From: Botryllus schlosseri
Taxonomy: Eukaryota
DNA length: 64,000 nucleotides
Direction of reading: 5' to 3'
Assembly: GCA_051294905.1 (NCBI GenBank)
Contig: CM119371.1
Span: 13,456,001-13,520,000 of the forward strand
The notes below the pieces were generated by a model. The model had not been told where the DNA came from and made no database searches. It saw only the letters and a program-made list of their open reading frames with translations. Shown here one piece after another: positions 9,360-59,850 of this stretch; the first letter of the stretch is position 1, and each line of letters opens with the position of its first letter. A program made the position numbers and the translations under genes.

Positions 9360-9957
9360 TTTCCTTTCACAAATCCTACAACTTTGTAGAGTACTTTCAG
9401 CACGACTGACCGTTTCCTGACCATTTCACCCTTTACATTTCATTCAATTCTTCACCACCAAATTTTAATCTCTTTGCAAACCCATGAGATTGAAGCCAAA
9501 AATGAAAGCGAACTGGTATATTTTCATATGGAAATGCTACATAATGGAAATCAGAAATTATACATTGAACAAAATCAGCATCATAGAATGACTGGATGAC
9601 TAGCAAAATAGCTAGAAAATTTTTTCGCAACGTTAGGAGGAACCACCACTGGAATGTACAACGAAAAGATCAACGTTGCGTTCACCAAGGAGTAAACGAT
9701 TTCGACCTGAACTGAAATACGCCCGAGAATATGTAAACGGTAGAGGAGGATGCCAAAAGCCATCTACACATGTCCAGTCCGACATAGTCGATTAGCATAA
9801 TGTATCTAGGCTGCGTTAGATGTCGATCAGGATATGGTCCCATTCAGATATAAGATAGAGGGATGGTTTCTTTGCCGAGGAACATATCTGGTAATGGTTG
9901 TATTCGATTTCAGAAGATTCCTTCATCAGTTCAGTACGGAGGAAGATTTTCCAATGC
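9360..9957 (-). pseudogene. Polycystin TM4-TM5-like exon remnant
   Basis: PRYIMLIDYVGLDMCRWLLASSSTVYIFSGVFQF...TQR*SFRCTFQWWFLLTLRKNFLAILL; cut at 9359 by a hAT insertion and resuming at 6956 (LLGAVLEVIAFG). Confidence 0.45.
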
Positions 9958-12839: not shown

Positions 12840-13105
12840 CATGGATAGAGTTACCACCTGATATGAATCATTCTGATTCAAATTGGATACCCGGTGACAG
12901 TGTTCTGAAAGTCTTTTTGAACTTATGATTCATCCTTGGTAGAGATGTGGTACGAAATCTTGAAATTAGTCTTCGTCATCTTCATATTTCCATGTTAGAG
13001 CACTAAAAAAATAACTACAGCAGCAAAACATGTCTTGACAAATAATGTTTGATATATCTCTGGTGAAGAGAAGCAATTCCAGCAAAATATCAGTATTTGA
13101 ACAGA
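12840..13105 (-). pseudogene. Polycystin TM1 exon remnant
   Basis: NIICQDMFCCCSYFFSALTWKYEDDED* resembles the TM1 end Y...W...DxxD; gtaag donor at 12839. Confidence 0.45.
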
Positions 13106-15101
13106 ATAAGACTCTTACAAGCCCCATGTTTTGGTATGCCCAAAGAGTCGATCGAATGCTAATCTCTTTCAAGTTGAGAGGAAAAGGACACGTTATGGTA
13201 TGCCCAAAGAGTCAACAGAGTGCCGAACTCTTTCACAAGCCCAGTGTCACGAAGAAGACACATTTTGGTAAGCGCAAAGAGTCAGCAGAATGCCAATCTC
13301 TTTTACAAGACCAGTGCCGAAAAGAAGGTGGCACATTTTGGCATGCACAAAGAGTAGACTGAATGCCAATCTCTTCTACAAGCCCAGGGCCGAGAAGAAA
13401 AGAACTCGTTTTGGTATGCCAAAGAGTCAACTGAATGCTGATCTCTTTTACAAGCCCAGTGTCACGAAAAAGACACATTTTGGTATGCGCAAAGAGTCAG
13501 CTGAATGCCAACCTCTTTTACAAGACCAGTGCCGAGAAGAAAGAGACACATTTTGGTATGCGCAAAGAGTCAGCTGAATGCCTATCTCTTTTACAAGTCC
13601 AGTGTCGATAAGAAAAAGACACATTTTGGTATGCGCAAAGAGTCAACTGATTGCCGATCACTTCTGCAAGACCAGTGTAAAGAAGAAAAGACACCTTTTG
13701 GTATGTATAATGAGATTTTTCAGTACTATCCTCTCATGCAAGCAAGGTGTTACAAGGAAAAGTAATGGAGCAAGGAATATTCAAGGCACCACTGCAGTAT
13801 TTGAGTGTGTTGTGCCATAGTCTCCAAGTCAAGATTTATGAGGAACAGACACATTTTGGTATGCGCAAAGAGTCCACAGAAAGATAATCTCTTTTACAAT
13901 CCCAGTGTTGAGAAGAAAAGGACACGTTTTGGTATGCCCAAAGAGTCAACTGACAGCCGAACTCTCTTGCAAGCCCGATGTCACGAAAAAGACACATTTT
14001 GGTATGCACAAAGAGTCGGCAGAATGCTAATCTCTTTTATAAAACCAGTGCCGAAAAGAAGGAGACACTTTCGGTTTGTGCAAAGAGTCGACTGAATGCC
14101 AATCTCTTTTAGAAGCCCAGTGTCGAGGAGAAAAGGACACGTTTTAGTATGCCAAAAGAGTCAACTGACTGCTGAACTCTTTTTACAAGCCCGGTGTCAC
14201 GAAAAAGACACATTTTGGTATGCACAAAGAGTCAGCAGAATGCCAATCTCTTTTACAAGACCAGTGCCGAGAAGAGACACATTTTGGTATGCACAAAGAG
14301 TCAGCTGACTACCAATCTCTTTTACAAGTCCAGTGTCAATAAGAAGAATACACATCTTGGTATGCGCAAAGAGTCAACTGATTGGCGATCACTTCTGCAA
14401 GACCAGTGTTAAGAACAAAAGACACCTTTTGGTATGTACAAAGAGATTTTTCTGTCTCATTCTCAAATTCAAGCAAGGTGTTATAAAGAAAAGTAATGGA
14501 GCAAGGAATATTCAAGGCACCGCTGTGGTATTTGAGTGTGTTGTACCATAGTCTCCACATCAAGATTTATAAGTAACTGACACATTTTGGTATGCGCGAA
14601 GAGCTAGCTGCAGACTCGTACAAACTACTGGATTTTCAAAAAGCGCAAATAGAACTACAACTACTCACTTTTCAAAACTAGCAACTACAACTAAAACTAG
14701 AACTACTCAATTTTCAAAACTCTTAACTAGAACTGAAACTAGAACCAACGACATTTAAAAATGAATACACCGCACAGTACAGTGCAAACTTTCGACTTAG
14801 CCCGCCAACGTACTTTCTGCTTCTCATTCTCAGAAAATTAATTGCCAACCTCTGGCGTAGAGGTTCCCAAGTCCTTGAATGTTAAGACCCGTACTGAACT
14901 GGATTTCATTCTCCTAGGCAACACATTAATTTTTATTTTATCGGAAATATTATACCTAGAATCGACTTCTTAAAACGACGGGGTTTCGAGTTTGAAATGG
15001 GAGAGATTTCGACCCCAAAACTCACCCGTTGGGGACGCCACTGTTTGGACTGATGACTCAGAGCTAGTAATGGCTGCACGTGCACAAACCTCATTAAACA
15101 G

Positions 15102-15209
15102 CTTCTTGGAGGTAAGGAACATCAATATACAATTGACTATTGCTGACGATTACCCCTGATGAGTGTCAGCCGAAAATATTCGGGTTCATTTCAATATGAA
15201 CATACTATT
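15102..15209. mobile_element. 108-bp PLE-type insertion (inverted tail plus forward hammerhead)
   Basis: 17-bp direct repeat CAAACCTCATTAAACAG at 15085-15101 and 15210-15226. Confidence 0.75.
15142..15185 (+). ncRNA. Minimal type-I hammerhead ribozyme, family A (intact)
   Basis: ACCC-CUGAUGA-G(UGUCAGC)C-GAAA-AUAU-UC^-GGGU; palindromic stem III AAUAUU; upstream GCUGAC pairs with loop II GUCAGC; predicted cleavage after 15181. Confidence 0.8.
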
Positions 15210-16169
15210 CAAACCTCATTAAACAGAACACCGGTATATCGATTCAGGCAAAACGACGGTACCTGCTTTCTATTTGTTCGGCAACTAATATGTTTTTCAA
15301 ATGTGAAACTAGAACTAGCACTACTTACTTTTCAATATCCGCAACTAGAACTACTCACTTTTTGAAATCCACAACTAGAACTATTAAAAAAAAACGTTAG
15401 TCGACCATCAAGTCTGGTCAACTGAATGCTAATCTCTTCTACAAACCCAGTGTTAAGAAGAAACAGACACGTTTTGGTATGCCCAAAGAGTCAACTGAGT
15501 GCCGAACTCTTTTACAAGCCCGGTGTCACGAAAAAGACACATTTTAGCATGCACAAAGAGTCAGCAGAATGCCAATCTCTTTTACATGACCAGTGCCGAG
15601 AAGAGACACATTTTGTTATGCGCAAAGAGTCGACTGAGTGCCAATCTCTTTTGCAAGTCCAGTGTCGAGGAGAGAAAGACACATTTTGGTATGCGTAAAG
15701 AGTCGACCGAGTGCCAAACCCTTTTACAACCCAGTGTAAAGAAGAAAAGATACCTTTAGGTATATAAAGATACCTTTAGGTACATTTTTAATAAATCATG
15801 CTTACTCTCAATAACAGCGGTTCTCAAACTTTTTCAGACAAGCCCCCTTTATGATAGTGAAAAATTTCGACCCCATTATCATCATATCACAAAATGTAAC
15901 CGAATGCTAGCAATACCAACAGATAGATAGTTTAATGGCATAGGTTATGATTGTTGATGAGAGGAATCTCAAATATAAAATTCCAAGTATAGACACAGCA
16001 ATAAGTTTAAATTGTGGGTAAATCGAGTAGGCCTAGAGTGCGAAAAATATTTTCAGGTGACCACAGCTTCACCCGCTCGCCCTTTCCCCCAAGAGGGGCA
16101 CGCCACTTAGTTTGAGAACGACTGCTCCAATTTAAAAATCTTATTTTTTTCTTCGTTTTTCTTATATAT

Positions 16170-17885: not shown

Positions 17886-19926
17886 GTTTAATGAACTTTT
17901 TGGTTGATGCATTAAAATTTGGCCCGGAGGCCGACCGAAAAAATTTCCAGCTGGATATCTTGTTACACATAATCATGTGCAATGATAGCAAGTAGCTCAT
18001 GAATATTTTAGGGTTTTGGTGCCTAATCCCTTTTTACTCACGTAATCAAAAGACATATGCTCATTGAGTAGCCCAAGTCCAATCCAGTAATGGAATAAAT
18101 GATAGACCAATTAGAATATTCACAGAAAACTGTGGTACTAAAACAAACAATGTGATGTAAATACGTTAAAGCAGCTTACCTATATGGGTCAATGGCTACG
18201 CATCAAGGCTGCAAGTATCTGCAATCATTTCTAGTCAGTAGCAGGACTCATCTTTATATACCACTCTTCGGTCGGGGACCTTTTTCATCTGAAGAGCAAT
18301 ATTTGCCCATTTTTCTTTCCATTTCAACTCTCAAAGAGCAATACATGTCAATCAACTGTTACATCACAATTGAAAATTTGTGATGTCATGGTAGCACCTA
18401 TACAATCTCACTACATGGGATTCATCGTGTTGCGCCTCATTTTATCTGTAAAAACTCGTACTAATCATGCTTGCATAACCTAATTTGAGCATGTGAACCT
18501 CGAGTTACGAGAACTTGGCTTTGTAATGATCCTCCTTTTAAATGCAGGAACCCATGATCACGTGCGTAAGTGGAGCCAAACATGGTCACTACAGCAGTAT
18601 ATACCTAATGTATGGTGTGTTACATCAGTGACGTGGGGTCGGGGGAAGCAAGTGAGTCAGTTCGTCACCTGTCGCCACGAAAATTGTGAAACCTTCAATT
18701 GCCATTGGTATTTTCTATCGATGTTCATGAATGGCCAAATTTTAAACATTTTCCTTCCTAAATCAGGCGATTTGCATATTTAATATTTGAAAATAAAGCC
18801 TGAAACGAGAGGTTATGCACCGACGGGCCAAGCTTCGCAGTTGATACCGTAATCCATCGTAAAAGCTTACAATTTATATAAACTGATAATAATAGAATGT
18901 ATGATGATTAATTGCATGTCGCAACGATTCCGAAAATCTAAATACTGCTCGACTTCACAATTATCCAAGTATTTGGAGGAAACATATAACGCTACGTCAC
19001 ATGCCTACATATTATCGCCGGTAGTACAAAGCGACTTATCATTCAAGCTAGCTATGGCATTGTTTGATATTCGAGTTTGTAATTGAGAATGTCACTTATT
19101 CCACAGCAGTTCATTTCGCGCTGTAGATCAGGAAGACTGCATATTTAGTTGATAACTTCGTTGTCATATGGACGATGCCAAGTCTGCTATTCTCTTTCAT
19201 CAATCAATGTATCGTGCAATCCAAGATTTCGAGTCGGGTACATCAAATTCGTGAGCGATATTGGTCGCCAGCGCGACAGCAACTTAAATTTGGGGATTTT
19301 GAAAAGGGGGGTTTGAGCCCCTAACCGTGATGACGGCAATTGTCTTTACCTCTCACAAGACATGTTTATACTGTCACGAGAATAATTATTTTGGTCGTGA
19401 TGAAAATTAACTACCAAGTTGCTGCAATATTGATCAATTCAATTAATTCAATCAACTGCACAGAAACCAACTTCAAGCTCACCTTTATGCTGAACTTGTA
19501 GTGGACGGTCCTCACTATCTTCGAGTGACTAAGGGCTTCCAAGTATATGTAGTACACAACCTGTAATCAAGATACATATTCAAAACACCCCCCATCATGA
19601 AAATGGCTCGGTTCTAATTTTCTGATTGGACTTTTTGAAGAATATCAGGTCATTTTTCAAAGACTATGAACCACCAGGGATACGAAGTCAGAAATGAAGG
19701 TACCATTCGAAAGCAAGTTTCCGGCCCTAACTAATAAATTCACCTAGAAGTAAGTTTGAAATCTTGAAAAATTTATCAGTTTATAATCTGAATGTGACAT
19801 AGGAAATCACACATTTCAGTATGGCAAACCAGCCCCACTACTCTCCTACAATATATGGACATGAAGAGCTTCTTGGAGGTACAGAACTTCAATATACAAT
19901 TAAATAGTATATTCATATTGAAATGA

Positions 19927-19970
19927 ACCTGAATATTTTCGGCTGACACTCGTCAGGGGTAATCGTCAGC
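19927..19970 (-). ncRNA. Hammerhead ribozyme family A (one stem I mismatch)
   Basis: Same core CUGACGA/GAAA/UUC; the stem I 3' strand is AGGU. Confidence 0.7.
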
Positions 19971-20012
19971 AACTAGTAGAGAATTGGAAAGAACATTGTA
20001 TATCAACTAGTT

Positions 20013-20056
20013 GCTGACGATTACCCCTGACGAGTGTCAGCCGAAAATATTCGGGT
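20013..20056 (+). ncRNA. Hammerhead ribozyme family A (intact)
   Basis: CUGACGA 20027-20033, GAAA 20043-20046, UUC^ at 20052, stem I ACCC/GGGU. Confidence 0.82.
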
Positions 20057-20936
20057 TCATTTCAATATGAATATACTATTTAATATATGGACATATAATA
20101 ATGTATGCGATGACTGTACACTATAAAAAAAACAGAAATATGCCGGGGTTGTAAACTGTTAAAAGAGGTTTGACATGATATTTGGGTCGAATGTACCTTT
20201 TTTTCTGGACCTTCAATTGAGCGGTTCCTTCAAAATCTTTGTCAGATAACAAACTTTCTTCACACAATGTTGATGCCTTCTGGTGTCAGAGACCATTGTC
20301 AGAATGGAGAGGTCATTGCGAAAATTGTCTGTAATCAACATTGCTCAATATGACAACAGATATTTCTGCATCTTGTATATAACGGAAATCGCTTACATTT
20401 CATAACAACTGATGAGAGATAATATGGCATTATTTTCGTAATTGCCACGGCAAGAAACAAAATACAATCCTAAATTGATTTCACTATGCCGATTCTACTC
20501 ACATTATCAAAATACATATGCTTACCGAGTAAATCCAATTCATCATTGGCATAAAAAATACACCCATTGAAATCTTCACCGAAAACCGCAACACTAATCC
20601 AGAGCAATTTCATGTGCATATTTCCTAACAGGTCGCAGTAGGATGCTATTTATCAAGTCTGAAAGTATCTGCCATTTCTTATATGAATTTCAAGAAATGA
20701 AGCATATATCAGTAAAAAATTTCATTTTTCATTTTTCATAAATCATGATATTCTAGGGATGTGTACCAAGCTAATATTGTGTCGTCGGAAGCTAAGTAGC
20801 GGTTATAACAAATTGTGCCTGTGTGAAAGGTGACCATGACCATTCACCACTTTTGATTGCAAGCCCTTATGTTACAACCGTTGAATCGTGAATAGGGCTA
20901 TTATTTTTTGACATTTTTTGACATTACCAAAAACTA

Positions 20937-27884: not shown

Positions 27885-28250
27885 AAACATTACAATAACA
27901 ATCAATTTTCCATAGTTCCTCGTGGTCGTTCTCTTCTTCATTTAAAGGTTCTTGACTCAACCATTATAAAGCTGCTAAAGCCGATCCTCTATCGCCAGAA
28001 GGAACATCTCTACACGCTGGGAATCTTCCATTAGTGTTGTTTTGTCAATCGGCTGTTTTACAGCTGATTTTGTGTGCGTTGTACCGTAACCGTGCGTTGT
28101 TTACTGCCGCTCACGACTCTGTGTACTTGTCATTATTACGTCACAAAGACAAAATTCCTTCTGTATTTCGAACTTGGCTAACCTCATTTACTGGCGTTCA
28201 CTCCTGAAGAGGGCCAGTCGAAAAGCTTCGACTGGAATAAATTTGCAATA
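27885..28250 (+). mobile_element. 3' fragment of a Penelope-like retroelement (GIY-YIG C-terminus plus pLTR with hammerhead)
   Basis: 27885-28034 reads KHYNNNQFSIVPRGRSLLHLKVLDSTIIKLLKPILYRQKEHLYTLGIFH*, matching the F-x-I...L-x-x-L-[ED]...I...P-x-L terminal motif of PLE endonucleases; followed by a hammerhead and AATAAA. Confidence 0.75.
28190..28236 (+). ncRNA. Hammerhead ribozyme family B in a Penelope-like pLTR
   Basis: UUCACUC-CUGAAGA-G(GGCCAGU)C-GAAA-AGCU-UC^-GACUGGA; palindromic stem III AAGCUU; upstream ACUGGC pairs with loop II GCCAGU; AATAAA follows. Confidence 0.78.
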
Positions 28251-48000: not shown

Positions 48001-51000
48001 AATTTTTCAAAATTTTTTTATGAACTCAGAATTCAGAAAAGAATAACATGTGTAAATATTGGACAATTCTGAGGGTATGCATTAGAAGTGTCAAAAAAAA
48101 GCTAAGTATTAATGGAATTAGTATGTAGTTTCACCCAAACTAGTCTAAAACATATCAATTAGGGTATGAAGTACAAGTAGGGCCAAAAACCAATTCGAGT
48201 ACTTCATATTGACATATTGAGTGACTGACTAACTCTGGTCAGGAGAGACTTGAAAATAAAAATTTGCTAGTGCTCAACAAGGAGTAGATTTGTACCGATA
48301 TCGGAACTAGGCTTTCTTCCAATCGCCCAAAGGAGACATTCGACGTCCGCTTCCACAGTTTCGCCAGAGGGCTCACTCGATTGAATCATCACCTGCATGC
48401 AAAATATGTTTTCATACGCACAGTCATAGTCAAGTCTGCAGTTATTGAATGAGAATAGCCGAGTCATGCTGCACTATTGATAATTACTATGAAGATAAAT
48501 GAACAAATATTTGATTGGATATTTAAAAATGAAGGTATTTCCCGGAATTATGCACAAAATCGAATTATTTGCATGATTTTGGAACCAGAAAAAGGTAATG
48601 CTTACATAACCTAGCTTGTATGATATATTCATTTCGAAATGAACCAAAATATTTTCGGCCGACACTAGACAGACAAGACTGTGTCAACAAAAAAATTTCG
48701 TGTACCATCTCAAAATAGTGCAGACACTCTGGTATTTGACATTTCATGCTGGTGACGTCATATTTTGTGATACGATTGTTGATATACGATGTTCTTTTGA
48801 ATTCTCTACTAGTTGCTGACAACTACCCCTGACGAGCGTCTGCTGAAAATATTCGCGTTCATTTCAATGTGATATAGGCTACCATTCAATTGTTTACCGG
48901 TACTGCAGTTCTGTACCTTCAAGAAGCTCTTCAAACCTAGTTTGTGTAAACACTCACTTACAAATACTGTTAAGGACCAGGATCAACGAGGCTGGATCAT
49001 ACCATTTTTGGCACGAAAATAACATTACGGCTGCTGGCTGAATGAACTAAGAGCTGCAGTGTTCCATTCATACATTGGAACTCTCAAGGAGTTTTCTGCA
49101 TTGTTCTTACAGCAGTAGACTATTGGTCGAGCTACCATAAGCCACGTGAGCAAAGAGAAATTTCGCCATGATGAAGAGAAATCGACCTGATATGGATGCA
49201 CCTCTGCCGACATTAACAGCAGAAACTTCAGCTGTACCAGCATGAACCATGATATATTTTAAAGAGCTTCTTAGAGGTACACCACTTCAATATACATATT
49301 CATCGAAATTCGATATCCATCGAAACGAACCCTAACATTTTCAGCTGACACTCGTCAGGAGTAATCGTCAGCAACTGGTAGAGAATTGGAAATAACATTG
49401 TTTATCAACGATCGTATCACAAAATATGACGTCACCGGCATGAAATGTCGAATACCAAAGCGTTCAATGTACTATTTTAGATGCTACACGTACTCCATTC
49501 AGAAGTCGCCAAAGCGGATCATTAATCCGCAACATGGTTTCATGAAGTTCAAGCGGGTATCCCTCTACCGCAAACCTATCAAAATGGTACTAAGTCGATG
49601 TAAAAATCATCTGATAAGACTGCCAAACAAGATTTTGTTGTTAAAGCAGCAACGTAACATATTGCCACATGCAAATTGGCATTGCAAACTTGGTAACACA
49701 AACCAACGTTTTCAATGGCGGTCTAAAAATCAATAATTTGCTTGTAACTTTTTCTGCACATTTTATAGACAAAGTTCTATGGAAGTGAGATGAAAACATG
49801 TTGATCCCGCAGATTTTAAGCCCAAAACTGGCATTCCAGCATAAGGGGTTATCTAGCTATCTATCTTAGAAATTAGCTATTTTTGGCTCACTCGGTGGAA
49901 TTGTCCGGTCACTAGAGGGTGCAAAAATCTGAAATCATGATAGAAGTAATTCATTGGAGATTTGGGATCAAATGTCAGTGTTACATTTTGAAATCCAAAT
50001 TTTTCTTTTTTTTTACTCTACCCGAATAGCCTACCCTATTCCCAGACTTAGGTCCGGCACAGGTATGAATTCAACTTGACAAATGCGAAAGGCTTGGTTT
50101 TAATGTGATAGCGATAGAATTGAACCAGGACCTAAGGATTGGAAGACCAGTGCTCTTACTACCGAGCTACGATCGAACAAATACGGAGCAACAGCTTGAC
50201 GTCACACTCAGTGCAATATCTTACAGTCATTTTTCCGCCGCTTTTTTCTACTTTCTTCACGTGTGAGAACTTGTGAACTTTTATGCCGGCATCTTCCATT
50301 TCTTTCGTGACGTTTTCGCTGATCATCGAGTCGAAATTTCGGAGAGCTTGATGTCTGAAGAGGAGTCAGCATTACTCAATTGCAAGAAAAACTCTCGATT
50401 TACAAAACATGCTATAACTACATCAAGCGGAAGTAGAAAATGTAAGGCGTAGAAATAAAAAAATGTAGATTTGGGAACTTTGGTTGACACCAGGGCTGTA
50501 ATGACTCGACTCAAGTCCGACCCGAGTCGCTAATTTTTGATGACTCGAGTCAATTTTGTTTTGACTCGACTTATACTCGAGTCATTGTGCATGACTTTAA
50601 CCTAGTCATATGACTCGTGACTAGGAGAGCCAAGTCAGGCATTTATTAGATTTCGAAGATTAGTAAAGTTATCACATCATTGGTTTTTCGTCTATCAATC
50701 CTGATACTTGGAAAATTGGGTCAAAAACTGTTAAGACTGAGGAAAATAATGATATTATGATTAGGAATGCGAGTCAATCTATACCACTCCAGCAGAGTTG
50801 AAAATAGTGGATTGAACTAAAAACTGAACAGTGAACATAATGATTTGGACTCGAGTCAAAACACTATGACTCAGATTCGACCCTATACTAGGTGACTTGG
50901 ACTCAGACTTGACTCGGTAGTGAATTGAAAATTACTCGACTTGACTCGACTCGAGTCAAAACTATGAAAGAGAGATTGACTTGTGACTTGGAACCCTATG

Positions 51001-53118
51001 ACTTGGTTACTTGAATACTGTACTGTACATACGCAATTACGCATTTTCCACTTCATTTTCAACTTGCTATTACAGACATACATGCTTGCCTGCTTGTTTT
51101 GTTCGGGGTTCAATCTATAGCACGATTTACAAACCATGTTACAGACCTTCTAATTATAAGATGTGTTTCGCATCCCAGACCGTTGAAAATTCCAGCCATC
51201 TCCACGGCGATGTATCCCGCACCGACGACAATGGCTTTCTTGGGAAGGGCTTCAAGTTCGAAGAAACCATCACTTGTGATTCCATACTGAGAAAAAAATT
51301 ATTTTATTTTCATGCAAGGAAGTCGCAGCATTAGGCCTAAAGAATAAATAATTGGTACAAGAGTCACTCATTGATCATGGATTAACGCTAAAGGTAAACA
51401 GATAGGTTCACACAGTCCATAAGTAGTACTTGCATTTTGGCAGATTCATGTAATTTACCTTGATATCTTTGAGATCCACAGCTAAATTACGAGATACCAG
51501 TAGGCCTACAAATTTGTATAATAACAGGAGTGGACAAAATGGTAAGAAAATCGTATTATCGGGCTTTGGGAAATTTCGAATACCAAAACTTCATAGTTTA
51601 TACCAAAATATATATAAGCCACTGCTTTAATCAGAGTTCGTTCAGACTTCAAAACAAATTTGTACCAAAAATGATTGGATGGCATTCCCTTCAGGACAAT
51701 GCTATTTATTTTGCAATGGATAAATAGTATCATCAATTCTGACACACGCCAGATACGATCGTCCAATTAGAAAATACACACATTGTATTGAATTGTGGAA
51801 GAGCAATCCGCCTGACTTGGCAGTGTCTAATACACAAATACAGTTCCGGAGGTACATAACTTCAATATCCCAACGAACATTATGTTCTTATTGGCAGAAT
51901 TATTCCGCTTCAAGTTTTTTGACTGACTGTTATTAGGAATGAATATCGGTAAGTGTGATTAACCAAATTCAAAATATAGGAATACTTTTTTCATTGTATC
52001 GTCTAGGCCTAGGTAACAATGACATGCAAACAGGGTCGGGAATTGCATATCATATCAAAATGTAAAGGTAACAGTATAACTGTAGTAAATTAGGCTCTAA
52101 AAATAACGGACTAACATAACTAGGGTGTCTGATATTGAAGACTACACCAAGTCGTTTCGACACCTTCCTATCGTTCATGGTATCGCAGTCTTGTGCTGTA
52201 TTGAAATGATGAAATTATTAGCAATAAATCGAATTTGAATTGCTTGTGGGGTTCTCTTTTTAATTAAAATGTAATCAAGAATCCAACATTATGCACCTGC
52301 AACAGCCTGCTGCTAGATGGAACGGAACTCTATACTCTGTGAACATATTATTAATGTTGTGTTGTTATTGAGGTATTCAGTATGTCAATTTGTCAAATAC
52401 AATTTGGTTAACGCCTTTCGATTTACTGACACTCGCTCCTGATTAGAGTGCGTCGAAAAGACGAAAAGCTGACAGAGGAGTAAATTTTGCAAAATGAATA
52501 TAATGTTTGTAGCAATATCTAATATCCTGATTTAATATTATCAAATAACCAACAAGCCTAAGATCACAGTCAATCCTGATGTCAACACAGAAGTATTAAT
52601 CTCACCTGCGCTCCAGGTATTTCGCCTTCTGACGGTATAACAGGATATCCCCCAGTGGCAATCAGGATATGGGGAGCTGTGTATTTTTTCCCTGCCACAG
52701 ATATTATCGGATACGGATCTTTCTCCCCAGTGAAGACGCCGTGACCCAAAATCTTTTCTACTTTCGCGTTGCCGAGCATCGTATCGTAAACTCCGTTCAA
52801 GCGTTGTATATACGCGTCGCGCCGGTCTTTGATGGCTTTCCACGTAAATTTCGGCTTCCCCGACAATTCAAAACCATAGTCCTTAGCGTCGTGCAGCGTT
52901 TCGGCAATTGAAGCGGCCGAATACATGATTTTTTTCGGCACGCAACCGACGTTGACGCAAGTGCCACCCAATCGTCCGTGCTCGATTACTGCGGCTTTTA
53001 CGCCGAACTCTGTGGCCCGCCTTGCGCTGGCAATCCCACCCGAGCCAGCACCCAATACCAAGTAATCAAATTTGGTAACGTTAGACATTTTTCTGATAGA
53101 TGTCAATCCACGAAGCAT
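35937..53118 (-). CDS. GSR: Glutathione-disulfide reductase, 8 exons: join(53118-52606, 51286-51147, 50354-50225, 48392-48296, 47261-47102, 45514-45379, 40329-40213, 36065-35937); 1422 nt, 473 aa
   Basis: FAD motif GAGSGG, redox motif [18 protein letters not shown] motif [10 protein letters not shown] motif [19 protein letters not shown] and C-terminal [12 protein letters not shown]. All introns are GT-AG and the phases (0,2,0,1,2,0,0) join into one open frame. There is no C-terminal Sec/Cys tail, so this is GR and not TrxR. Confidence 0.96.
36337..37129 (+). mobile_element. ~800-bp non-autonomous hAT (Ac-type) family retaining the transposase C-terminus; other copies at ~11850-12670, 24680-26146, 30803-31500, 45670-46508 (-), with fragments at 20892-21921 and 29000-29170
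   Basis: TIR TAGGGCG; TSD GTTATCAC; sister copies encode [18 protein letters not shown] (hAT dimerisation motif). Confidence 0.85.
37692..38204. mobile_element. Palindromic Kolobok-like MITE
   Basis: AGGGG...CCCCT termini, TTGA/TTAA flanks, long inverted arms. Confidence 0.75.
39282..39849. mobile_element. Palindromic Kolobok-like MITE
   Basis: Perfect TTAA TSD, AG...CT termini, ~250-bp arms; empty site CCTTTAACTG is seen in uninterrupted host copies. Confidence 0.82.
40213..40329 (-). CDS. GSR: GSR exon 7 (IYKTNF...KVVGLHMQ)
   Basis: tatcag acceptor, CAG|gtaat donor, MKLVC and VVGLHM motifs. Confidence 0.93.
40447..43257 (+). mobile_element. Decayed hAT Buster-family transposon in GSR intron 6
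   Basis: TIR CAGTGCTTTTCAACC; perfect TSD CACTAGGC; GTGCGAA repeats; C-terminal relic [29 protein letters not shown] (~42965-43055). Confidence 0.85.
41575..42390. mobile_element. hAT element nested in 40447-43257
   Basis: Termini CAGGGCTGTCAAA / TTTGACACCCCTG; TSD GAGTAGAG/GAGTAGAC. Confidence 0.75.
43943..44295. mobile_element. hAT MITE with CGCCCCCC repeats
   Basis: TIR CAGTGGTTYCCAAC; perfect TSD ATCTAGGT. Confidence 0.85.
45379..45514 (-). CDS. GSR: GSR exon 6 (LFDG...[12 protein letters not shown]...NVK)
   Basis: ttccacag acceptor, AAG|gtgggt donor. Confidence 0.93.
45670..46508 (-). mobile_element. Copy of the ~800-bp hAT family in GSR intron 5
   Basis: Perfect TSD GTAATCAC; reverse complement of 36337-37129. 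Confidence 0.82.
47102..47261 (-). CDS. GSR: GSR exon 5 (LDKVGV...[14 protein letters not shown])
   Basis: tttcag acceptor, gtaaa donor, GDV and [10 protein letters not shown] motifs. Confidence 0.94.
48296..48392 (-). CDS. GSR: GSR exon 4 (VMIQ...[14 protein letters not shown])
   Basis: tgcag acceptor, G|gtaca donor, LLWAIGR motif. Confidence 0.9.
48815..48858 (+). ncRNA. Degenerate hammerhead family A
   Basis: Core CUGACGA/GAAA/UUC retained; mismatches in stems I and II and in the pseudoknot. Confidence 0.55.
49329..49372 (-). ncRNA. Hammerhead family A variant, sense to GSR intron 3
   Basis: ACUC-CUGACGA-G(UGUCAGC)U-GAAA-AUGU-UA^-GGGU; the substitutions give G-U wobbles. Confidence 0.6.
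50000..50170 (-). mobile_element. tRNA-derived SINE fragment in GSR intron 3
   Basis: Minus strand GTAGCTCGGTAGTAAGAGCAC...GGTTCAATTC. Confidence 0.5.
50225..50354 (-). CDS. GSR: GSR exon 3 (HQALRNFD...GGKMT)
   Basis: cttcag acceptor, gtaag donor, LRxFD motif. Confidence 0.92.
51147..51286 (-). CDS. GSR: GSR exon 2 (YGITSDGFF...HLIIR)
   Basis: ttttctcag acceptor, AG|gtctgt donor, GAGYIAVE motif. Confidence 0.93.
52606..53118 (-). CDS. GSR: GSR exon 1 (MLRG...EIPGAQ)
   Basis: ORF 52582-53118; donor CAG|gtgag; in-frame TAG upstream of the first ATG. Confidence 0.95.
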
Positions 53119-53441
53119 CAGACGCTGAATGAGCTGCTACGATACGGGAGCCAAATAATTCAAGCCAGGCTGAAGCAAATGATGATGAGTAACGATGAGT
53201 CTGCAATGTTTGCAAATGCGTGAGTGACCGAAAGTAACCTTCTATCAAAACCTCTTGCCATTTACAAAAACAAATTGAAAGCAGACCACCGAGAGTGCAG
53301 TGCACTGAGCATGCCTGACTAAATACATCGTTTTAGTTGAATAATTACACTAGTTGTAGCGAAATGTCAGTAATATAACCCTAATGTAATATTTGAAATG
53401 CTTCTTAGCTCAAAGTTTCATTTCAAATCCGAACTAATTTC

Positions 53442-56219: not shown

Positions 56220-56930
56220 AGCCACAGTTCAGAGAAACACAACTTTGATCGACCGCATTGACTGCAACAGTTCTGGAAGTACATTACGTTAATAAATTAA
56301 TTATATCCTACTGCTTTGGTCTCTATGCTTCACACTTGAAGTTTACATTTAATGTGATTAATCCTTGTATAGGTGGATAAATACGCGTTTAATGTATCGA
56401 TTCAGGAATCCGGCCCGCCGACTGGAGAAGTTGCCCGCCTCTGCCATAGGCCTACTCGATAATCTCTACGTCAGGAGTCATCATAGCAGTAGCCCGCAAG
56501 AACCAAACGAGTCACCCGCGATCGCAGTAGTAGATATCCAAATGAGAGATTTGAAAGTCGAAACGGAGAAGGGTGTCATATGAGCAACAGTTGAATATGG
56601 GTCAGTTGACCCTAAGGAACATAGGAACGCAGTTTTCAATCATAGCGTTGCTCGTCTTTGAACACACGGAGGCGTAACGGGAATCTAGTTGATATTCCAG
56701 AGTCTTGGCTCCGAGATGGACGCTGGTGTGAGTCCTGGTGAGAGAGAGTCTGTCCAAGGTAAGGGGCGAAAAGCCTGCGTAGTGCTCTAAACGTCTAAGT
56801 GCAAAATTCCAACTGAGCACAGAAAAACGGCAGGAGTAACTGGTAGCCCGTCGCATTAATCAGCAGGCCCAAGATGTTGCTCTTGGTTTCAGAAAGGTTG
56901 GCAACACCTGGCCTACACCTTTCTTACGAT

Positions 56931-57638
56931 TCAAACATTTTTTCCACGAAATAATTCCTTTATATCCTTTGAATCTGCACAGTCAATCGGTGTATCACCA
57001 CTTTCGTCGACCGCATTTGGATCAGCACCGTTTTCCAACAAAATTTTAACGATATCTTTATAACCGCATAGCGACGCGTAATGTAACGGAGTCGATTGCT
57101 CGTTATCAACAGCACTGACGCTGCATTTATGGTTCAGTAGAAACCGTGCCACCTCTAAATGTCCACGATCACACGCCCAGTGTAATAATGTCCTACCGTC
57201 ATTATCATGAATGGTACAATCACAGTCTTCAAGTTCTTTCAATTTGGATACATTGCCATCCTTGCATATTTGGAACAAGATATTTTCGTCTGGAATTACA
57301 TCATCATTGCTGTCATCAATCATGCGGCTCACTGATTTACCAGACATTGATTTTTTCTCAGGTTTACAGTCCCACGTAGGATCCAAACTCCGCAATTTCA
57401 TCACATATTCGCTTTTAGCTTGTGATTCCGCCATCGTGCCAAGGTCGTTCCATGCGTTCCATTTCTTTCGTCCTTGAAAATCAAACAGTCCTGGCTTCGG
57501 AGCGTTGCAGGGTCCGATTGTCGCCTGTTTGAACCTGGCGTAAAGGTACAGTAGACCATCAGCATCGAGTTTGTCTGCAATACTAGGCAGATGGTCCGCG
57601 GCGGATTGGAAATATTCGGAGTCTTCAGATTTTTCCAT
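56931..57638 (-). CDS. ACBD6: Acyl-CoA-binding domain plus ankyrin-repeat protein (ACBD6-like), 235 aa, single coding exon
   Basis: ACBP motifs LLYLYARFKQAT and KWNAW, followed by ankyrin repeats GRTLLHWACDRGH and STPLHYASLCGY...GADPN. Confidence 0.92.
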   Translation of the reverse strand: MEKSEDSEYFQSAADHLPSIADKLDADGLLYLYARFKQATIGPCNAPKPGLFDFQGRKKWNAWNDLGTMAESQAKSEYVMKLRSLDPTWDCKPEKKSMSGKSVSRMIDDSNDDVIPDENILFQICKDGNVSKLKELEDCDCTIHDNDGRTLLHWACDRGHLEVARFLLNHKCSVSAVDNEQSTPLHYASLCGYKDIVKILLENGADPNAVDESGDTPIDCADSKDIKELFRGKNV

Positions 57639-59850
57639 CGATAAATCTAACGTTTATGAGCAATGTTCTGCAAAAATCAATGGCCGGTGAAACATCACAC
57701 ATGATAGCCATGCAACAATGAACTTCGACAATTTAACAATCATTTTACCATGAAATAAGGACACAGCAACATACATATTCCAGAGTTGGATCTGAGCATA
57801 TTGTTTCGATAACTTTGGTCAATCCATTAAATCGTAAATGACAACATAGGACTGTAGAAGGAAAGATACTCCACTGGCAGTGCTGGACAGAAAACAGAAA
57901 AACAGCTTCGAAACACAAAAATAATTATATAGATTCCACAAACCAATTCACACCAGATAGACAGCCTCTGTGATTGATACAAATGTAACGGTTTAATTTC
58001 CGGCATGCTTAGGTTACGAATTTTAGTAGGCTACTCGAAACCTAATTGTGACAGGATTCAATTACTAGGAGTCATTTACTTACTTAATCAATAGCATACA
58101 AAGCATATTTCAACACAGAAGCATGTAACTGAACTATAAGAGAAACCAGAAACTTCCTCATGTATAGTCTATCATAGTTAAGTGTAGGATACACAGGGCA
58201 ACAAATGCCAGCAGTGCAGTATTCTCATCATGCATCATCAGTATAATTACGTTTTCCATCAGCCTAGATCGACAAGTAGGCTACTATTTAGCAAATGCTA
58301 CAATCATGCACGGCGCACAGTCAATTTGTACAAGATGGCACAAAATCACTGTTCGTTCTTATGCAAATGCCCAGATTGGTCACTCATGTCTTTATGCAAA
58401 CGATTTTCTGTTGGCACTACTAATTCACTAAAAATGCTTGTATTCGCTCAGAATAGAATGACTAACTACTGGATATTGTCACAGATCTGAATCTTACACA
58501 GCCTCTAACCTGTACCCTAATCAGTAACGGTTCCTTCAAGTATTCTGGGAGCATTTGAAGACTGATGAGATGGAATGTCCCAAACACTACCTCCAAAACG
58601 AAATACAGAACATTGGCAGTCTTGTTTATGACGTGTTATAATACAAACTCCCATTGACAGCAATGGCATCAAAGCCAAAAACAGTGATGAAAGATTGTCA
58701 ACAATAATGTGTCTCGGACTGAGATTTTCATAGGACAACATGCAATGGCAGTGATCATGATATCTTACAGCAGCAGTTACCGAACTCTCTATAGATGGTG
58801 GTCCGGGCCAACTCAAGCACGGGTAATTTTAAACCCAGTTTCATGAGCATCACTAAAAATAGGTCAATAATATCAAAATAGACACCAGTAAAAAGTTTGA
58901 AGGAAAAATTCACCCACCTAGGAAAAAAAACGGACGTCGAAATGTCACTGTACAAAAAGCTTATGGAAAGCCAAACAGACCAACGTCCACCATCAAGAAC
59001 CGCCGCACCACATTGAAACATTTACAAGCATGTGAAACAAAAATGGTGCGCATCAGCTGAAATAAGAGGCACACCAATTTACTGCCCACATCGTCCACAG
59101 TGCAACACACACACTGTCAATTTGCGGATGCACTTTTGAGGCAACTCAAAAGCCACAGTGAAAAAAACATTCACTAACCGCAATCTGCGGAAGTGACAAT
59201 AACAAATCTCACGATCGATTCAACCGTTGAATAGTTTAAAAGTTCAACATTATTTTGAAATGTCCGCGGTTCAGTGACAAGGTCAGTTCAAGCCTTATCT
59301 GCTTTGAATAATATAGAGTCTCCAAAATTCGACACCCATTTCGACAAAGCACTAGTAAATCGGCAGAAATTACCGTTTCGCTATCATCATTTCAAAAGTG
59401 AAGCTTTGAGACTTCAATATAGCATTCAAAACTAATTGCAAGACACTATACACCTTCACAGAGTCACATTTCCGAGTCGCGATAAACACAAAGCTTATAG
59501 TTATGGTCAACCATTCAAAACCTTTTGCCAAGTGTAACCAACATATGATTTTCCTTGATATCTTATAAAAGGTACATAATTGACCATTGGAGCTTGCTCT
59601 TATTGGGCATTGAATAGTGTATGACGTATGACATTATTGTGAGTGGCATTGAAACACTGAACTGCTAGTTTAATGCTCAACTCGGTATCGAATCACGTAT
59701 GTACCCGATCAGCATTAAATGAGGTAAGCTAGTATCACGTGTTAAAATTAACAACACCATACCAATATCGCAAAATGGCGCTAACATGAGTTCACGGACA
59801 AATGTACGAACGAAATGAAGCGTGCAACATCACCGGCACATGAAAATCCC

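Follow-up and report, generated by a model that had tools for sequence, protein, structure and literature searches.

Can a hammerhead ribozyme give up the hairpin of its stem II and borrow the missing strand from elsewhere in the molecule? The question is raised by 64,000 nt of Botryllus schlosseri DNA (contig CM119371.1), called the window below, in which a motif with a hammerhead core was read on the plus strand at 28190–28238 and a second version of it at five further sites. A preliminary description had assigned these copies to two families, B and A, respectively, and had proposed that a pseudoknot between loop II and an upstream hexamer replaces stem II, with cleavage requiring two copies to pair through a palindromic stem III. 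The comparison of copies reported here supports the pairing of the hexamer with loop II as a real, selected helix lying exactly at the position of helix II. Taken together, a location between units of a Penelope-like element (PLE), a pseudoknot hammerhead architecture of about 50 nt and dimer-dependent cleavage make up a reading that we consider probable.

The two families share one layout, in which a hexamer is followed by 8 nt, CUGAnGA, a G, a 7-nt loop, a C, GAAA, a 6-nt palindrome, H and the 3′ strand of stem I (hammerhead positions are numbered in the standard scheme). In both, the hexamer is complementary to positions 2 to 7 of the loop. Family A reads, in order, GCUGAC, GAUUACCC, CUGAYGA, G, U, GUCAGC, C, GAA, AAUAUU, C and GGGU; the parts of the family B copy are given in Table 1. 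The core pattern CTGANGA-N(5-15)-GAAA occurs seven times in the window against 2.32 ± 1.51 expected, a count reached by one of 100 shuffles, and six of the seven matches are motifs of these two families. The seventh, at 9908–9929 on the minus strand, is a chance core word unrelated to the motif. A covariance model built from the 97 copies described next recovers the same six motifs at 54–77 bits, along with three or four decayed copies. The full hammerhead core (CUGANGA...GAAA, H17, G10.1–C11.1 and A15.1–U16.1) is present in these six good copies and in families A, B, B′, C, C′ and E, including those introduced below.

What is the evidence that hexamer and loop pair with each other? We aligned 97 distinct copies, taken from the window, from 30 loci (L001–L030), from 40 places outside family A, from two tandem loci and from one metagenome family. 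The 30 loci were drawn with a pattern one base longer in stem III and are enriched for variants with a 7-nt stem III. Identical rows were collapsed, and we dropped L033 and L034, the window match at 9908–9929, the core words inside open reading frames (ORFs) of L031 and L032, and all metagenome loci other than family E and L185. The first two of these loci make up family D (loop GUGGACU), a chance core word in another repeat that has no partner hexamer, palindrome or stem I. The search patterns fixed CUGANGA, G10.1, C11.1 and GAAA and left the hexamer and loop free, except for one base in the genome pattern.

Across the 97 rows the hexamer pairs with the loop in 87.8% of cells, compared with 18–32% in slid controls, and each of the six pairs has changed on both sides in at least one copy. 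Pair 1 is AU in 53 copies, GC in 29 and UA in 9; pair 4 is GC in 76 and AU in 5; pair 5 is AU in 65, GC in 15 and GU in 11; and pair 6 is CG in 78, UG in 7 and UA in one. Each pair also has 6 to 16 unpaired cells, as expected of dead copies in decay. The covariation score of the whole structure is 0.391, against 0.203 ± 0.011 for shuffles (none of 500 was as high) and at most 0.102 when the partners are slid by one to three columns; since the copies are related, the shuffle statistics overstate significance. Counted by lineage, there are at least five double changes over four of the six pairs. In nine rows, one per subfamily and picked after seeing the data, every one of the 54 pseudoknot cells is paired, with changes on both sides at four of the six pairs. 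The combinations of hexamer and loop are GCUGAC:GUCAGC in family A, ACUGAC:GUCAGU in family C, ACUAAC:GUUAGU in the young family C′ (locus L031), ACUGGC:GCCAGU in families B and B′, where G·U intermediates are present, ACUGGU:ACCAGU in a single copy (L060) and UCUGAC:GUCAGA in family E, which comes from another organism represented in metagenomes.

The other two helices were followed in the same alignment. Stem I covaries, with a closing pair that is CG in 35 rows, AU in 20 and GC in 12, and four of its five pairs have changed on both sides; its variants include ACCC/GGGU, GUUCGCUA/UAGCGAAU, CACUG/CAGUG, CACUC/GAGUG and AUCCC/GGGAU. In stem III of the nine chosen rows the central pair has gone from UA to GC with the palindrome kept, so that one of three pairs has changed. 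The arrangement is that of a three-helix hammerhead with support from covariation. Among L001–L030 there are also sizeable subfamilies with a 7-nt stem III (AAUAUUU, AAAUAUU or AAGCUUU), U17 and a mismatched first pair of stem I, which may be active variants or decay products.

The preliminary description fares well on these points. Its reading of the hexamers, loops and palindromes of families A and B is borne out by the window sequence, as is the identity of the single G–C pair, the 7-nt loop and the 8-nt spacing in both. It had taken different letters in an identical geometry for compensatory change and had asked for a covariance model of genome-wide copies; with the copies collected and the model built, the pseudoknot pairs do covary, four of the six being compensated between subfamilies and a further pair type appearing in the second organism. 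Its proposal of a loop II pseudoknot in place of stem II is upheld as a real, selected helix by the covariation and by a published pseudoknot (PK) hammerhead that has the same core.

Could such a motif arise by accident, as a core-like word that happens to lie near a complement of its loop? Chance core words do exist, as family D, the window match at 9908–9929 and the matches inside ORFs of L031 demonstrate. In the 495-Mb genome, however, the pattern Y-N14-CTGANGAG-N7-CGAAA has 4,129 + 3,999 matches (8,128, with an A opening the hexamer in 676 + 592 of them), against 5 + 7 (12) for the reversed control; moreover, the complement lies at a fixed position and covaries. Metagenomes and viral contigs supplied further controls. 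The metagenomes were scanned with CTGANGAG-N7-CGAAAANNTT, which matched at least 118 stretches, and the matches listed include 83 that are unrelated to the motif. Any pairing hexamer within 30 nt, G·U being allowed, occurs in six of these 83, where about 5.8 are expected by chance; in viral contigs a pairing hexamer lies within 45 nt of four of 43 matches, at −14 in none, and the arrangement was not found there. In all, the complement at −14 is present in none of the 83 unrelated metagenome matches listed and none of the 43 matches in viral contigs. The chance reading is refuted by these counts, and we give it a practically negligible probability.

Of the metagenome matches listed, 35 belong to one repeat family, family E, and lie mostly at contig ends. 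Its order is UCUGAC, GAUAUCCC, CUGAAGA, G, U, GUCAGA, C, GAA, AAGCUU, U and GGGAU. Among the first 80 loci listed, 21 copies have a flank that reaches the hexamer, and 20 of them have a perfect complement at −14; the remaining one (L126) has a U·G pair. The spacing of the hexamer is the same as in the Botryllus PLE motif, family E being known here from short metagenome flanks alone. In one copy, L153, the similarity to the family starts at the hexamer and ends exactly at the predicted cleavage site, which could reflect an insertion made from cleaved RNA or a chance breakpoint. Only one of the six chance-level matches mentioned above resembles a relative: L185, a single metagenome copy with a hexamer at −16 and two G·U pairs, which may be a relative or a product of chance.

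What carries the motif? Most copies have only 75–190 bp in common with each other and often lie head to head. At L031, copies are exactly 2,778 bp apart, in tandem units with an open frame of 853 amino acids that matches RVT_1 (E 7e-10) and, at its C-terminus, shows a weak GIY-YIG-like match (Pfam E 0.0023, below the cut-off). From its predicted make-up of reverse transcriptase and GIY-YIG-like domain, the element is an endonuclease-bearing PLE. The motif sits in the 216-nt spacer between the ORFs of these units, with the predicted cut at 1056/1057 and the ATG at 1076, about 20 nt downstream of the motif. The arrays stop about 40 nt past the predicted cut. Insertions are 5′-truncated and end about 40 nt past the cut, and therefore nearly every copy keeps the motif, which accounts for the more than 8,000 genomic copies. 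A search with the element protein had 7,882 first-look candidates, of which 53 were scored, and listed 54 matches; 36 of the 54 are full-length, free of stops and 99–100% identical, in direct and inverted arrays, giving at least 36 intact ORFs. Family C′, the PLE family of L031, looks recently active on this evidence. Near other copies no reverse transcriptase was found, either among ORFs of at least 120 amino acids within 1.5 kb of 30 copies or in four ORFs of the window; these ORFs comprise one rve, one DEAD and one PALP match and host genes, and the copies are truncated insertions.

Published PLEs have partial tandems, inverted 5′-truncated copies and a 30–40-bp tail (PMC8557442), as well as a hammerhead at the start of the ORF and internally initiated reverse transcription (PMC11167929); the layout of the present element agrees with that structure. 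Divergent, head-to-head pairs of hammerhead-bearing ends occur in 6 of the first 30 loci (L001–L030), and whole arrays are inverted in the genome too, for example at C11:890699-905424; such inverted pairs are typical of PLE insertion structures. In the inter-ORF spacer of L031, five reads of run X22 have loose letters resembling a template-switch oligo just before position 879. RNA 5′ ends at this position, about 137 nt upstream of the pseudoknot hexamer, suggest a transcription start inside the spacer.

How would the motif fold and act? Comparison shows it to be a compact type I hammerhead of about 50 nt, with a stem I of 4–8 bp. Its helix II consists of the G10.1–C11.1 pair alone, extended by a 6-bp helix in which loop positions 2 to 7 pair with the hexamer, the immediate 5′ neighbour of the stem I strand. 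On the 3′ strand of this 6-bp helix, C11.1–G12 follow without a break, so that the helix stacks on G10.1–C11.1 and takes the place of helix II, with the single remaining loop nucleotide (U, A or G) bridging back across it. This replacement follows from the sequence together with the crystal structure of the PK hammerhead (PMC11300833). The link from the hexamer to stem I is only 0–4 nt long and holds stems I and II side by side by their outer ends, which is the job of the loop–loop contact in other hammerheads. The 6-nt palindrome, AAUAUU or AAGCUU, leaves no room for a loop and hence can pair only with a second copy. Cleavage after H17 would then depend on an encounter between two copies, within the transcript of a tandem array or with the aid of the protein of the element, and would release ORF RNA with a short leader from longer transcripts. 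Dimer dependence, suggested here by a palindrome that is unable to fold on itself, would fit published PLE hammerheads (PMC4209133, PMC6765202).

Does the motif in fact cleave? Several observations weigh against the architecture and mechanism just set out. The conservation of the core and of G10.1–C11.1 holds by construction, the patterns used to fetch the copies having fixed both, and the covariation is supplied by a few subfamily lineages belonging to what are essentially two organisms. No Rfam hammerhead reaches its gathering score (18.8 bits against 56.3 for RF03152, 16.6 against 34 for RF00163), and the window as a whole has no match in Rfam at gathering scores and no hammerhead among its 12 matches at E up to 10. 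In three raw-read RNA runs, coverage of L031 spans roughly positions 750 to 1130 and crosses the predicted site; no concentration of molecule ends was registered, at that site or at any other, in these runs, whose libraries are of a kind not meant to recover such ends. In genomic copies the sequence continues for about 40 nt past the site, which means that the RNA that was copied had not been cut at that hammerhead. Finally, the self-duplex of AAUAUU (family A) is computed at −0.2 kcal/mol and is very weak; the corresponding values are −4.3 for AAGCUU and −4.1 to −8.5 kcal/mol for the pseudoknot helices.

Some of these observations can be placed. The RF03152 score is low because model positions 1–24, which form an extra hairpin, and stem III are missing here. 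As for the RNA, 89% of the bulk-run reads placed on L031 continue into unlike sequence and thus come mostly from truncated copies inside other transcripts, and loose read ends at L031 1097 and 1099 mark the 3′ ends of insertions. Uncut reads and a weak palindrome fit the low, dimer-dependent or protein-assisted activity published for PLE hammerheads (PMC4209133, PMC11167929).

An alternative is that the hexamer and loop form an ordinary hairpin that encloses CUGAnGA, either as an inactive or regulatory conformer or as a recognition element for the reverse transcriptase, rather than a replacement for helix II. A plain nested hairpin is what results when stem I is left out, and it appears in minimum-free-energy folds of C and C′ copies. 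Such folds gave competing hairpins, and they decide nothing, since a pseudoknot cannot be represented in them. The reads that cross the site uncut suit an ordinary hairpin, and so does another PLE in which the ribozyme needs protein, catalytic mutants leave insertion in vitro unaffected and reverse transcription starts nearby (PMC11167929). However, the 3′ strand of the helix abuts C11.1–G12 exactly as helix II does, and the G, 7-nt, C geometry is identical to that of the crystallised PK hammerhead. Stem I, the helix that turns the fold into a pseudoknot, covaries too, and the full hammerhead core has been kept in divergent subfamilies and in the second organism. We therefore regard the ordinary hairpin as unlikely.

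It might also be argued that the motif is a relic, descended from a working hammerhead that lost cleavage in this lineage and is carried along in the 3′ terminal segment copied by every insertion. Here the missing read end at the predicted site, the weak palindrome duplex and the low or protein-dependent activity published for PLE hammerheads (PMC4209133, PMC11167929) all tell in its favour, and most of the roughly 8,000 copies are indeed dead, truncated insertions. Set against this, compensatory changes in the pseudoknot and stem I between subfamilies point to selection on the fold in active master copies, and the youngest family, which keeps at least 36 intact ORFs, combines a perfect motif with the fresh double change ACUAAC:GUUAGU. 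A relic seems to us improbable, to about the same degree as the hairpin, and a selected pseudoknot hammerhead remains the reading that we prefer.

The copies in the window are collected in Table 1.

Table 1. Parts of the family B motif and other copies in the window, with covariance-model scores where available.
Feature	Positions	Strand	Score	Remark
Family B 5′ hexamer ACUGGC	28190–28195	+		Complements 28213–28218; forms the 5′ side of the pseudoknot helix in the place of helix II
Family B 8-nt segment GUUCACUC	28196–28203	+		3′ part CACUC is the stem I 5′ strand
Family B core CUGAAGA (C3–A9)	28204–28210	+
Family B G10.1	28211	+
Family B linker nucleotide G	28212	+
Family B loop hexamer GCCAGU	28213–28218	+		3′ strand of the pseudoknot helix
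Family B C11.1	28219	+		Geometry of 28211–28219 agrees with Rfam RF03152 consensus positions 25–77
Family B GAA (G12–A14)	28220–28222	+
Family B palindrome AAGCUU (stem III)	28223–28228	+		Can form only between two copies
Family B C17	28229	+		Cleavage predicted between 28229 and 28230, as read from the sequence
Family B stem I 3′ strand GACUGGAAU	28230–28238	+
Remnant of element start codon	28250–28252	+		ATG context CAAUAUGAA shared with the full-length element in L031
Family A copy	20009–20068	+	77.4 bits	Hexamer 20013–20018, core 20027–20033, loop hexamer 20036–20041, AAUAUU 20046–20051, C17 20052, GGGU 20053–20056
Family A copy	19915–19974	-	74.3 bits	Head to head with the copy at 20009–20068
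Family A copy	15138–15197	+	77.0 bits
Family A copy, decayed	48811–48870	+	54.3 bits	Loop GUCUGC; U for C11.1
Family A copy, decayed	49317–49376	-	58.7 bits	U for C11.1; AAUGUU for the palindrome
Old decayed B/C-type copy	52421–52488	+	32 bits	Core mutated to CUGAUUA
Old decayed B/C-type copy	51895–51954	-	19.9 bits	E 0.01; core lost
Family A fragment	48647–48666	-	18.3 bits	5′-truncated; kept from the loop onward
Doubtful covariance-model match	53337–53375	-	15.1 bits

Slight decay is visible in the family B copy of the window: the 3′ strand of its stem I is GACUGG, against GAGUGG or GAGUCG in its relatives at L036, L045 (twice) and L057, and the copy has one C·C mismatch in a stem I in which the CACUC strand pairs with GAGUG in relatives. 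The same G-to-C change creates a 9-bp hairpin, CCAGUCGAA/UUCGACUGG, at 28213–28235, which would compete with the ribozyme fold. The head-to-head pair of family A copies lies within a 188-bp inverted repeat of 90% identity (19899–20084), and the copy at 15138–15197 is flanked on both sides by a satellite-like array with a period of about 70–73 bp (13100–15760). Elsewhere in the window, a fragment at 56524–56889 on the plus strand resembles positions 1457–1888 of eukaryotic large-subunit rRNA (48.6 bits, against a cut-off of 50) and adjoins an ACBP/ankyrin-repeat ORF at 56931–57653 on the minus strand.

How much of this is new? Less than the preliminary description implied, since both of its structural ideas are already in print. 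The pseudoknot helix II, the palindromic dimer stem III and the class of host element are all known, and the motif is not a new kind of ribozyme; knowledge of ribozyme chemistry is unchanged by the finding. What looks new is the combination of these features in an animal retroelement without helix IV, together with the minimal size, the abundance and the invisibility to current descriptors. We found no PLE or retrozyme hammerhead described with a helix II of the pseudoknot type in a literature coverage that lacks Lünse, Weinberg & Breaker 2017, the paper likeliest to show one. It is tempting to propose that animal PLEs carry an undescribed hammerhead of about 50 nt, in which helix II is completed by a 5′ hexamer without helix IV and stem III forms only between copies; we put this forward tentatively, as a real possibility on which we would lean slightly to the negative side. 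If it holds, PLE lineages listed as having no canonical hammerhead may carry non-canonical ones, and the spread of hammerheads in eukaryotic retroelements would be underestimated. It would also mean that an apparently active animal retroelement makes use of the known pseudoknot solution for helix II, in what, for want of the extra hairpin, would be one of the smallest natural hammerhead layouts.

The structure also explains how more than 8,000 copies were missed by standard tools: the Rfam models stay below threshold, and the minimal-hammerhead (min-HHR) descriptor requires a stem II hairpin. A simple rule, a hexamer at −14 that complements loop positions 2 to 7, could be used to re-examine PLEs without canonical hammerheads; as a descriptor it reads hexamer, 8–10 nt, CUGANGAG, N, complement, CGAAA and a 6-nt palindrome. 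A separate observation concerns the Naiad PLEs of nematodes. The 3′ ends of four of their consensus sequences (PMC8557442 supplement), flagged in that paper only as HHR_core or HHR_half_core, can be read by eye as non-circularly permuted hammerheads of the C-S-G order. Stem I covaries among them (CCUUA/UAAGG, GCUUA/UAAGC, UCUUA/UAAGA and AACUCA/UGAGUU), as do stems II and III. In the text of Eckert et al. 2023 (PMC10085705), type-CSG is known from two metagenome sequences only, and the word-stem 'nematod' does not occur.

With which known hammerheads should the motif be compared? Two more distant relatives may be taken first. In a type II metagenome hammerhead (Perreault et al. 2011, PMC3088659), a stem II of one pair is enough as long as stems I and II are held by a 6-bp pseudoknot; activity falls when the pseudoknot is deleted or mutated and returns with a compensatory mutation. 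That pseudoknot joins loop I to the 3′ tail and acts as a tertiary clamp beside stem II, whereas here the helix would lie in the place of stem II itself. The non-circularly permuted hammerheads (SGC, CSG and GCS; PMC10085705) resemble the motif in that the stem I side is joined to the stem II side by a few nucleotides and the core stems are pseudoknotted. Those types, however, reorder whole blocks of the core, while the present motif keeps the ordinary type I order C, G, S, with only the distal 5′ strand of stem II displaced.

The nearest structural relative is the RAGATH-1, or PK, hammerhead, whose discovery is credited to Breaker and co-workers and in whose crystal structure a 6-bp PK helix fulfils the role of helix II (PMC11300833). 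The order is the same type I order of pseudoknot partner, stem I, CUGAnGA, loop, GAAA, stem III, cleavage site and stem I, and here too a single G–C pair closes a 7-nt loop, with a 6-bp helix to an upstream strand in the place of helix II. RF03152, whose consensus over positions 25–77 is stem I, CUGAUGA, G, 7 nt, C, GAAA, a long stem III hairpin and stem I (Rfam), aligns to the family C′ motif over these positions only. The differences lie at both ends. The PK hammerhead takes its partner strand from the loop of an additional hairpin, helix IV, which an A-rich triplex linker connects to helix I (PMC11300833), but here that strand is a single-stranded hexamer with a join of 0–4 nt. Inspection of families A, B′, C and E showed no conserved complement on either side of the hexamer, and in family C all 8 nt after it belong to stem I. 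Stem III, a long hairpin in the PK hammerhead, is a 6-nt palindrome here, and the stem III positions of RF03152 are deleted in the alignment. The host also differs, being an animal retroelement in the present case.

The nearest relative in its host and its dimeric stem III is the minimal hammerhead of PLEs, which has a palindromic helix III and forms dimers (Cervera & de la Peña 2014, PMC4209133); pairing of stem III between two copies was proposed there for newt and PLE hammerheads. Like these, the motif lies in the repeat between ORFs of a PLE, with the reservation that the GIY-YIG match is weak, is of type I with a short stem I, has no stem III that can fold on its own and a palindrome that implies dimers, and occurs at very high copy number in many sequence families per genome. 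In the published consensus, helix II is a hairpin of about 5–8 bp and A9 is separated from G10.1 by an extra nucleotide; the present motif has a helix II of 1 bp plus the pseudoknot, and its A9 is followed directly by G10.1. The published descriptor cannot find the present form, since the stem II hairpin that it requires must have 3 bp or more, and the word pseudoknot does not occur in the text of that paper. Some PLEs are described as having a hammerhead core that fits no stem/loop descriptor (Craig 2021).

Judged by its sequence, then, the motif fails one defining feature of each neighbour: the hairpin helix II of the PLE hammerheads on one side, and helix IV with the hairpin stem III of RAGATH-1 on the other. 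It would appear to work like the union of the two, with the helix II solution of the PK hammerhead and the dimeric stem III of the minimal hammerheads of PLEs.

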